Shown: one piece after another, positions 51,690 through 53,242 of the stretch
Layout: each line of letters starts with the position of its first letter
Position numbering within the stretch: the stretch's first letter is position 1
Source: Escherichia phage Ec_Makalu_002
Strand: one strand, 5' to 3'
Length of the DNA stretch: 64,000 nucleotides
Sequence record: MN709127.1
Translations under genes and position numbers: made by a program
Notes under the pieces: model-generated
Seen by the model: only the letters and a program-made list of their open reading frames with translations
What the model was told of the DNA's origin: nothing
Database searches by the model: none

Positions 51690-52025
51690 TTATCCTTTCT
51701 TAAACAAATTGCGAAGCCAGTATACAAACGGGATTTCTTTAAACTTGAATTTCTCTATAGTTAATTCTTTAGTAGCAAGATGAATACCATAAGCATCATG
51801 TGTCACGATATGCCATTTTCTATAGTCCAAATGTGAACAACCGTCTGGATCTAGGTTAATAAGAGTTTCTCGCTCACTAGGATTATTTTTCCACAATTTT
51901 GTAACCGGATCGCACATAATTCGACCTAGTGTACCATGAATAATCTCACAACGGTAAAGTTTTCCTGCGGTGATATAGGCACACCCGTCATAGTCGGTAT
52001 AAACAAACACTTCTTTAACACTCAT
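51690..52025 (-). CDS. hypothetical protein, tandem small-paralog family
   Basis: LINLDPDGCSHLDYRKWHIV shares C.HL..R.W motif with next two genes. Confidence 0.45.
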   Translation of the reverse strand: MSVKEVFVYTDYDGCAYITAGKLYRCEIIHGTLGRIMCDPVTKLWKNNPSERETLINLDPDGCSHLDYRKWHIVTHDAYGIHLATKELTIEKFKFKEIPFVYWLRNLFKKG

Positions 52026-52056
52026 TTTAATACTCCGTTGTTGTTTCGATGGGGGT

Positions 52057-52085
52057 ATATTACTACCCCCGTTTCATGCTGTCAA
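52057..52085 (-). promoter_or_regulatory. sigma70-like promoter (TTGACA-N17-TAATAT), hairpin GGGGGTA..TACCCCC
   Basis: minus-strand reading. Confidence 0.5.
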
Positions 52086-52346
52086 CTACTTTTTCAAGAA
52101 TTTTTTTAGCACATTCCAAAGACCTTTATTCTCAGGTTGTTTTGGTTTTTCGATCAGTGTCCAAGATCGACCGTCTAAGTGAGCACAATTTTTAAGGCAG
52201 ATAAAAATCTGGTGTCCCTTATTATCACGGATATAACCACTATTCGCAAATCTTTCATGTGGTGTATATTCATACAGTGTATTCGGTGTAATATACTTGC
52301 GGTTACTATAAGGTGTCATCACATACATCATGGTACTAACTCCCAA
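52086..52346 (-). CDS. hypothetical protein, tandem small-paralog family
   Basis: YIRDNKGHQIFICLKNCAHLDGRSWTLI. Confidence 0.45.
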   Translation of the reverse strand: MGVSTMMYVMTPYSNRKYITPNTLYEYTPHERFANSGYIRDNKGHQIFICLKNCAHLDGRSWTLIEKPKQPENKGLWNVLKKFLKK

Positions 52347-52522
52347 CGATCACCGCGAAGATGAGAACATCTACCATCAAGAAGTATCGTAATACGAAAC
52401 CCCGCATCATCTTCAATATACCCGATAGTCGGTGGATGTTCGTCGTCTCGTGCCGGGGTAAAATCATACATCTTTCCCGGTGTGATATCAGTGCCTTTAT
52501 TGCTATTGGTATAAACTTGCAT
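52328..52522 (-). CDS. hypothetical protein, tandem small-paralog family
   Basis: YIEDDAGFRITILLDGRCSHLRGDRWELV. Confidence 0.45.
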   Translation of the reverse strand: MQVYTNSNKGTDITPGKMYDFTPARDDEHPPTIGYIEDDAGFRITILLDGRCSHLRGDRWELVP

Positions 52523-52543
52523 TTTATTAATCTCCTATATTAA

Positions 52544-53242
52544 CTAACCACGGGTATAGTGTTCCAGAACAACGGTCAGATGAATATATTCTAATAAATC
52601 TTTCCAAAAGTCAACATCTGGTTCTTCCGGCATACCGTTTTTCTTTGCCTCTTCACGCGCGAGTTTAACACGCTCGTAGAGATCTTTCAATTCTTCCCGC
52701 ACATTATCAAAGGTTCTTTCTCCTAACTTACACGCTAAAATAGAAGAACGTCGCGCGAGCGGGAATTGTAGATCACCTGTCTGATAGATTTCAAGTAGCT
52801 GATAACCAACACGCAGAGCATGAGAAAGATCTTTCCAGTTACTGAAATACTTTTCAGATTTGGCTACCTGTTTCTTGAGATAACCAGACAACCCCCACAT
52901 ACCAACATGATAGAATTTATCGCGATGTGTTCGGATGTATTCCCATTCTCTGGAGGATTCGATCAACATGTTACTAGGCGCGTGCACCATGTCAATAGCG
53001 CCGATATCGCCTTTACATGCCAGATTGATAAACCGTTTTAGACTGAACATATTAACGTCAATATCGTCTTTGGTGTTCTTAATACCCTGACCGCTAGTGC
53101 TTTGGTCATAGTGTTCTTTCATCGATCCTAAAATAATTTCTTTCGCAGTCGGAACAAAGATACCACGATAATCTTTATCGGAATTTTCAGTATCAAGGCC
53201 GTATAAGTGAGATCCGAAGACCATTTTAACCATTGTATGCAT
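52544..53242 (-). CDS. putative nucleotidyltransferase (Pol-beta superfamily fold)
   Basis: GSHLYGLDTENSDKDYRGIF fits GS..G...D.D NTase motif; ATG 53242 with SD GAGGG. Confidence 0.45.
   Translation of the reverse strand: MHTMVKMVFGSHLYGLDTENSDKDYRGIFVPTAKEIILGSMKEHYDQSTSGQGIKNTKDDIDVNMFSLKRFINLACKGDIGAIDMVHAPSNMLIESSREWEYIRTHRDKFYHVGMWGLSGYLKKQVAKSEKYFSNWKDLSHALRVGYQLLEIYQTGDLQFPLARRSSILACKLGERTFDNVREELKDLYERVKLAREEAKKNGMPEEPDVDFWKDLLEYIHLTVVLEHYTRG

Follow-up and report, generated by a model that had tools for sequence, protein, structure and literature searches.

The DNA analysed here is a stretch of 64,000 nucleotides (nt) from Escherichia phage Ec_Makalu_002 (MN709127.1), called the window below. 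This work deals with a nucleotidyltransferase (NTase) gene in it and with three small genes, here named A, B and C. A sequence-only reading had placed the three in tandem downstream of the NTase gene, and all four genes were indeed found on the minus strand: the NTase gene at 52544..53242 (232 amino acids, aa), A at 52328..52522 (64 aa), B at 52086..52331 (81 aa) and C at 51690..52025 (111 aa). We consider it rather probable that two unrelated things stand side by side here in an early hyperplastic region, namely an RNA-repair-type NTase of the RlaP family and the small accessory binders A, B and C, which are probably not its subunits.

By its sequence, the source phage is a Krischvirus, i.e. 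an RB49-like, T4-type coliphage. The region 51000-54500 showed a nucleotide identity of 99.1% with Escherichia phage Ec_Makalu_003 and 96.7% with RB49, and matched 58 Krischvirus records (T4-type Straboviridae). The minus strand carries all genes of this region. Along the direction of transcription they are vs.8, a 41-aa open reading frame (ORF), vs.6 (Gly_radical, GrcA-like), a terminator, the NTase gene, A, B, a promoter/stem-loop element, C, regB, vs.1, vs, tk.4 (macro domain) and tk. The gap between the NTase gene and A is 21 nt, and the stop of A overlaps the start of B at ATGA.

The nucleotidyltransferase and its family

The NTase gene is the RB49p098 ortholog and encodes a short form of the protein. 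Its ATG is preceded by GAGGG and the translation opens MHTMVKMVFGSHLYGLDTENSDKDYRG; a longer ORF starting at 53275 does not correspond to the annotated start. The two strings from which a Pol-beta-type enzyme had been proposed, GSHLYGL and SDKDYRG, are both present in the translation, and the proposal was supported by profile searches. The protein matched Pfam RlaP (PF10127) with 53.9 bits (gathering threshold 23; E 2.7e-14) in an unbroken alignment over model positions 23-198 of 249, and it matched phrog_388 "nucleotidyltransferase" at 6.9e-80 in two stretches. The superfamily motif, hG[GS] with [DE]h[DE]h following 9-13 residues on, is present as F9-G10-S11, 10 residues, then D22-K-D24-Y. 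Residues G10, S11, D22, D24, D60, D62 and D84, among others, are invariant in 31 homologs. In the AlphaFold (AF2) model D24 and D62 start adjacent strands (residues 24-30 and 62-67), so that a third catalytic carboxylate is found at the head of the strand beside that of D24. G10-S11, D22-x-D24 and D62 are the predicted catalytic set.

The RB49 record already names this gene nrdC.11, and Nolan et al. 2006 (PMC1524935) had listed nrdC.11 among COG3541 NTases, with conservation in T4-like phages. As the ortholog of T4 NrdC.11, the window protein falls into a known family and is not a new anti-defence enzyme. It is under strong purifying selection, with a ratio of nonsynonymous to synonymous substitution rates (dN/dS) of 0.03-0.14 and an amino-acid identity of 92-100% over the Krischvirus-like contigs L006, L010 and L011. 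Many T4-like phage records (GenBank/UniRef names) call the homologs of NrdC.11 'thioredoxin', and one calls it 'HNH homing endonuclease'. The 'thioredoxin' label looks like an annotation error spread from the neighbouring nrdC.

The AlphaFold model (predicted local distance difference test, pLDDT, 91.9; predicted template modelling score, pTM, 0.87) consists of an N-terminal alpha/beta domain and a C-terminal domain of five helices (116-131, 136-155, 165-172, 178-201 and 210-230), which agrees with the helical C-domain described earlier. RlaPs have such a pair of domains, with the final helix packed back against the first. The coordinates of PfRlaP, an assayed bacterial RlaP, were absent from the PDB matches.

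The T4-type, RB43-type and Miami-type NrdC.11 proteins have 330-336 aa and carry a helical-domain insertion of about 105 aa, which is absent from the window protein. When the 120 closest homologs were compared, the insertion turned up in 118, all 302-344 aa long, and only the Krischvirus protein and one 234-aa relative (57% identity) were without it. The Pfam RlaP model breaks at or before position 142 in insertion-bearing proteins and runs through in the window protein, which indicates that the latter has the canonical RlaP layout. The T4-type insertion is itself conserved (KYGVKGSRL...FYEVLGRKFQ...YGERARxAExNxGIDWKAL; e.g. L003 2501-3511, L004 and L005; proteins P0143-P0260), and it has no counterpart in the Pfam RlaP model. 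The window NTase is therefore a natural, strongly conserved minimal phage enzyme without the T4 insertion, and could suit biochemistry as a construct.

Two RlaPs of Pseudomonas, PfRlaP and PaRlaP, add 1-2 nucleoside monophosphates (NMP) to RNA 3'-OH ends. They favour damaged RNAs, are needed to restore aminoacylation of over-trimmed tRNA, and act on RNA only; in the same work T4 NrdC.11 was placed in a separate cluster of the RlaP family, with unknown function (bioRxiv 10.64898/2025.12.29.696909). The T4 nrdC.11-mobD.3 segment can be deleted, and T4 can do without NrdC.11 (PMC9825161). In RB49, pseT (Pnkp) and rnlA (Rnl1) lie at about 128-130 kb, so the classical T4 tRNA-repair enzymes are available. 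By analogy with the bacterial enzymes, the NTase most likely tops up damaged RNA 3' ends alongside the phage Pnkp and Rnl1. It would add 1-2 NMP, template-free, to damaged RNA 3'-OH ends, such as those of tRNA halves short of nucleotides. Pnkp (pseT) and RNA ligase 1 (rnlA) could then reseal a functional tRNA and so counter host anticodon nucleases.

A substrate other than RNA seems improbable to us. The NTase might, for example, make a HalB-like, template-independent DNA homopolymer that counters a defence of the Hailong type, or its target might be a host protein or small molecule, which it would nucleotidylate. Such a role is in line with the best matches among solved structures: a Foldseek search against the PDB returned Pol-beta NTases with helical C-domains only, which were Hailong HalB (E 4.7e-5) and the aminoglycoside/lincosamide NTases ANT(4') (kanamycin NTase), LinB and AadA. 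Moreover, no RNA ligase adjoins the gene, and the function of T4 NrdC.11 is not known. However, the template modelling (TM) scores were 0.26-0.45 and the identities 11-16%, so that the resemblance is at the level of fold only, and PfRlaP was not available among these matches for comparison. PDB sequence searches with the NTase matched no chain. HalB itself was found by Foldseek only, with TM-scores of 0.38-0.45 at 11-16% identity, and no membrane-channel gene, such as that of the HalB partner HalA, lies adjacent to the NTase gene. The above-threshold RlaP match and the RNA specificity of the two assayed RlaPs argue for RNA.

The small paralogs A, B and C

The NTase had been rightly spotted, but it is already annotated as nrdC.11 in RB49 and the chemistry of its family has recently been worked out, so it adds little. 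The best lead at this locus is the family of the small proteins, which is widespread, has a confidently predicted fold and counts no member with known function. In this phage the family is triplicated, with soluble copies beside others that are probably tethered to the membrane, and one of the copies is replaced as a cassette. This pattern is often seen in genes of host-phage conflict.

That the three genes are tandem paralogs was confirmed by pairwise BLASTP (A-B 9e-12, A-C 6e-4, B-C 1e-3) and by shared matches to phrog_6261 and/or phrog_15978 (A 1.5e-27, B 6.7e-57, and C 5.8e-37 to phrog_6261). A hidden Markov model (HMM) built from the three found no further copy in the 64-kb window. The sequence-only reading had given them a common C-x-HL-x-x-R-W motif. 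As written, this motif was one residue off: the sequences are CSHLRGDRW in A, CAHLDGRSW in B and CSHLDYRKW in C, so that the motif is really C-[SA]-H-L-x4-W with Arg at +3 or +4. All three match the core of the PHROG 6261/15978 family (T5, [IL]T-x-GK-x-Y, DD-x-G and C-x-H-L-x4-W). K17, Y19 and W60 are invariant across the family. A zinc or metal site at C-x-HL was considered and rejected, because Cys52 and His54 vary.

B was predicted by AlphaFold (pLDDT 85) as a five-strand SH3-like barrel followed by a C-terminal amphipathic helix. A is a bare barrel of this kind and is acidic (isoelectric point, pI, 4.8), and B is basic (pI 9.7). C has a divergent barrel, then a linker and a conserved tail (51690..51762) with the sequence KFKFKEIPFVYWLRNLFKKG. 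A cationic amphipathic helix is common to the C-termini of B (GLWNVLKKFLKK) and C (FVYWLRNLFKKG), with hydrophobic moments of 0.58-0.74; A has no such helix. The membrane-targeting helix of FtsA has a comparable hydrophobic moment. Judged from fold, charge and evolutionary pattern, B and C are possibly held at the inner membrane by this helix, with A being soluble.

The family was then traced in large sequence collections. In a word-indexed search of 5.8 billion clusters, close relatives of A, B and C were found in Krischvirus-like contigs only, and all of the contexts looked up had the same synteny. When 1.84 billion representatives were searched exhaustively with a HMMER profile, 123 proteins were obtained at E<=1e-3, most of which are stand-alone proteins of 58-70 aa. 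The consensus of this wider family is MKVKTDYxGCxYITAGKxYE...DDxG...CAHLxGxxWEVVE. In a few members a single polypeptide holds two or three of the domains in tandem (P0028, P0036 and P0030), or the C-terminus has a variable extension. Together with the tandem genes, these multi-domain polypeptides show that multiplication of the domain is recurrent. The paralogs also recombine with each other, as indicated by P0005, an 83-aa metagenomic hybrid whose N-terminus comes from A and whose C-terminus and tail come from B. The same domain was seen as two tandem genes in L041 (39-257 and 235-459). In phage Bas10 (IsaakIselin), bas10_0082 (L028 47378-47851) directly follows the family member bas10_0081 and has a weak N-terminal match to the domain (E 0.005); by sequence it may be a distant second copy.

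Searches for a known function returned little. Pfam, NCBIfam and PADLOC gave no match for A, B or C, nor are they members of the Pfam SH3/KOW families (SH3_1, KOW and the like). A known defence or anti-defence family was rejected, since PADLOC returned nothing meaningful and NCBIfam only sub-threshold FosA noise. When Pfam was searched with 39 family members and 10 fused or long members, DUF6501 appeared weakly in 5 of the 39 (best E 0.0017) and the remainder was sub-threshold noise. A PDB profile search with the family gave no true match and found none of the SH3-like barrels, and the structural matches in BFVD were all uncharacterised phage proteins. A scan of bacterial genomes yielded no confirmed locus; here the family was found only in phages and viral-type contigs. 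Nothing was found in the literature under the names of RB49 ORF 095-097. We also tried and rejected a homology of A, B and C with vs.3, vs.4 or vs.5 of T4 or with the genes that flank NrdC.11 in T4, RB43 or Miami, as no match was better than E 0.1.

The short length of the three genes, their lack of Pfam, NCBIfam or PADLOC matches and the high variability of C could be read as signs of decaying duplicates or annotation noise. There is hardly any chance of this. dN/dS is below 1 for all three (0.13-0.52) and the genes are conserved and intact in 58 cultured Krischvirus genomes, which indicates that they are real. They have Shine-Dalgarno (SD) sequences and translational coupling, the fold is confidently predicted, and the 123 representative clusters are spread over diverse phages. 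In our reading, A, B and C go back to a tandem triplication, specific to this lineage, of a widespread SH3-like five-strand barrel domain of about 60 aa. They are fast-evolving early accessory genes, and their products most likely act as small binders of host or defence components.

The variable barrel of C and its stem-loop

The diversity of the region relative to L006, a Hadza-gut phage contig, peaked at C. Amino-acid identity to this contig was 100% for the NTase, encoded 1 kb from the barrel of C, 91% for A, 83% for B, 44% for C and 96% for RegB. Against L006 and L010, a block at about 52012..51763, covering the N-terminal ~85 codons of C, had a nucleotide identity of 35-55% with sharp borders, and its flanks were 86-100% identical. 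A promoter-early stem-loop (PeSL) forms one border. On the other side are the last ~24 codons of C, which are 86-98% nucleotide-identical. The barrel of C is thus an allelic replacement hotspot, exchanged as a cassette (51763..52012) beside the PeSL. The alternative allele (P0016-18 and P0026) was seen in metagenomes only.

The PeSL (52051..52085, minus strand) lies in the 60-nt spacer between B and C. The spacer contains TTGACA-N17-TAATAT, a stem-loop GGGGGTAGTAATATACCCCC (GGGGG...CCCCC, G5/C5 stem) that encloses the TAATAT -10 element, and then the GGAG SD of C. In GEC-3S a promoter has been annotated at this position, and a near-identical stem-loop element follows B in L029. PeSL cassettes of RB49 and phi1 are strong promoters and terminators that mediate the shuffling of ORFans (Arbiol et al. 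2010, PMC2839356). By sequence, the element between B and C fits this published definition of a PeSL cassette, with predicted promoter and terminator activity and mini-circle formation. Four related stem-loops (GGGrGTAGTAAnATACyCCC) were observed on the minus strand of the window, at 37867..37886, 38777..38796, 52051..52070 and 59728..59747, where 0 were expected by chance.

A and C both have a GGAG SD (52533..52530 and 52036..52033, respectively), which is a RegB target typical of early genes (PMC3014915). The gene of this site-specific (GGAG) endoribonuclease, regB (51263..51685, minus strand; Pfam REGB_T4 2.2e-48; RB49 annotation), is also downstream of this PeSL, with its start 4 nt behind C. 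C ends in the codons AAG AAA GGA TAA (51690..51701), which contain the atypical GGAU SD of regB, a documented RegB self-cleavage site in RB49 (PMC3014915). From this arrangement it could be imagined that C, possibly together with B, is tied to RegB as a modulator, an antitoxin-like partner or a localisation factor of the co-transcribed endoribonuclease, all the more as the 3' end of C with this autoregulatory site stays conserved when the rest of C is replaced. We regard this as very unlikely. T4 and more than 1000 other phages carrying regB have unrelated genes (vs.3-vs.5) upstream of it, and RegB acts together with the host S1 and does not depend on a phage partner (T4 record note; PMC3014915). 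The tail of C is conserved because it holds the translation-initiation region of regB and because B has a similar tail.

Adjacency of the genes and likeness to known systems

The NTase gene, A and B are enclosed by a terminator on one side and the PeSL promoter on the other. The terminator is an intrinsic-terminator-like hairpin found by hairpin scan between vs.6 and the NTase gene (53296..53320, minus strand; AAGCCAATCC-AAAAA-GGGTTGGCTT followed by a T-run), and a terminator is annotated at the same site in Ec_Makalu_003 and GEC-3S. The PeSL, a promoter-terminator cassette, parts C from the other genes. The long-form NrdC.11 proteins (300-344 aa) never have A or B downstream, and in T4, RB43 and Miami the genes next to NrdC.11 have no relation to A, B and C.

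The common position of the NTase gene, A and B between terminator and PeSL, the 21-nt gap and the ATGA overlap, together with the association of A and B with short-form RlaPs described below, would suit a model in which the insertion-less Krischvirus RlaP has A, B and perhaps C as its accessory or specificity subunits. They would then form one RNA-end-repair module with it, and might replace the ~105-aa insertion in trans. This is unlikely in our view. All short-form cases belong to a single syntenic lineage, so that the linkage of the NTase, A and B may be merely inherited. Canonical bacterial RlaPs are also without the insertion and are active alone. A detached T4-type insertion as the origin of A, B and C was rejected, as hhalign gave a probability of 0.1-0.2% for the insertion against the small family. 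In addition, dN/dS of A is ~3-10 times that of the NTase.

Loci outside the lineage were also inspected. There the small-family genes stand alone among small early genes, and no neighbour family recurs across 13 loci. No RlaP ORF was present in the available flanks of family members at 9 of 9 IMG/VR loci, 3 of 3 cultured-phage loci (Vibrio helene, Pseudomonas KIL3 and Drexlerviridae Bas10) and 9 of 9 metagenome loci, and the complete Bas10 genome has a family member and no RlaP. With RlaP absent at these 21 other loci and from the Bas10 genome, the idea of partners is left with synteny inherited in one lineage. The earlier suggestion that the paralogs are partners of the NTase was therefore not supported: the family exists in unrelated phages without a nearby RlaP, and T4-type NrdC.11 exists without such neighbours. 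The adjacency is most likely lineage-specific and incidental, and A, B and C are probably not NTase subunits.

Several points weigh against reading the locus as an RNA-repair-type NTase beside unrelated small binders. The phage RlaP clade is only distantly related to the two assayed RlaPs, as they fall into different clusters of the sequence-similarity network. The RNA-ligase neighbourhood that defines RlaP (RtcB or a 5'-P ligase) was not found, since rnlA and pseT are ~75 kb away and the neighbours are vs.6, A, B, C and regB. Addition of NMP to RNA 3' ends is an activity that we infer by analogy for the window NTase. The short-form RlaPs examined (232-238 aa, down to 57% identity; the window, L006-L013 and L029) are all directly followed by A and B, and their tight or overlapping spacing would also be expected of a functional module. 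Finally, that A, B and C are binders and that membrane tethers occur among them is drawn only from fold, charge and evolutionary pattern.

Two more specific proposals can be made for the small proteins. They may be diversifying binders for counter-defence or host takeover, in which A is cytosolic, B and C sit at the membrane through MinD/FtsA-like amphipathic tails and new alleles of C are supplied by PeSL exchange; or they may be lineage-specific targeting subunits that direct the insertion-less RlaP to particular damaged RNAs. Such proposals are speculative and, taken together, unlikely. If true, either the binder array or the targeting of RlaP would be the first function assigned in a phage protein family of more than 100 representative clusters.

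Upstream of the terminator, vs.6 (53329..53745, minus strand) codes for an autonomous glycyl-radical cofactor of the GrcA type (Gly_radical 1.6e-16). It changes faster than its neighbours, with an amino-acid identity of 78-92% over Krischvirus-like contigs. A gene for an HNH (NUMOD4/HNH_3) homing endonuclease is located between vs.6 and the NTase gene in L006 (2247-2774), L011 (2653-3246) and L029 (3951-4547). At this position the window has just an 86-nt spacer with the terminator (53243..53328).

The window NTase shares about 45% identity with the T4-type, RB43 and Miami NrdC.11 proteins. Its likeness to T4 NrdC.11 (Y05H_BPT4) extends across both halves and includes the same GS, DxD and D residues as well as the helical domain at the C-terminus. 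In contrast to the T4 protein, it has 232 instead of ~336 aa, as the insertion between the helices of the helical domain is absent, and its gene is located between vs.6 and regB, having left the nrdC-mobD region. With the bacterial RlaPs of the RtcB operons (P. fluorescens and P. aeruginosa) it shares above-threshold Pfam membership without the insertion and, by its predicted structure, the N-terminal NTase domain, the helical domain and the C-terminal helix, and the phage also holds an RNA-repair kit of Pnkp and Rnl1. It differs from them in lying in a distant cluster of the family and in having no RNA ligase next to it.

The element between B and C resembles the PeSL cassettes of RB49 and phi1 in its sigma-70-like -35 and -10 elements, its polyG/polyC stem-loop over the -10 and its downstream SD beside an ORFan, and the adjoining ORFan is replaced as PeSL-mediated shuffling predicts. 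The difference is that a PeSL stands only at the upstream border, whereas the downstream border falls inside the coding sequence of C, where the conserved tail starts. The likeness of the small proteins to SH3-like barrels (eukaryotic SH3, KOW, the C-terminal domain of PhnA, and Gp54 of phage Bas11, PDB 9axb) is at the level of fold only, with no sequence relationship. To PHROG 6261/15978, A, B and C are tied by strong profile matches. In this phage they form a tandem triplication, in which a cationic amphipathic tail was gained by two of the copies, and replacement is concentrated in one.

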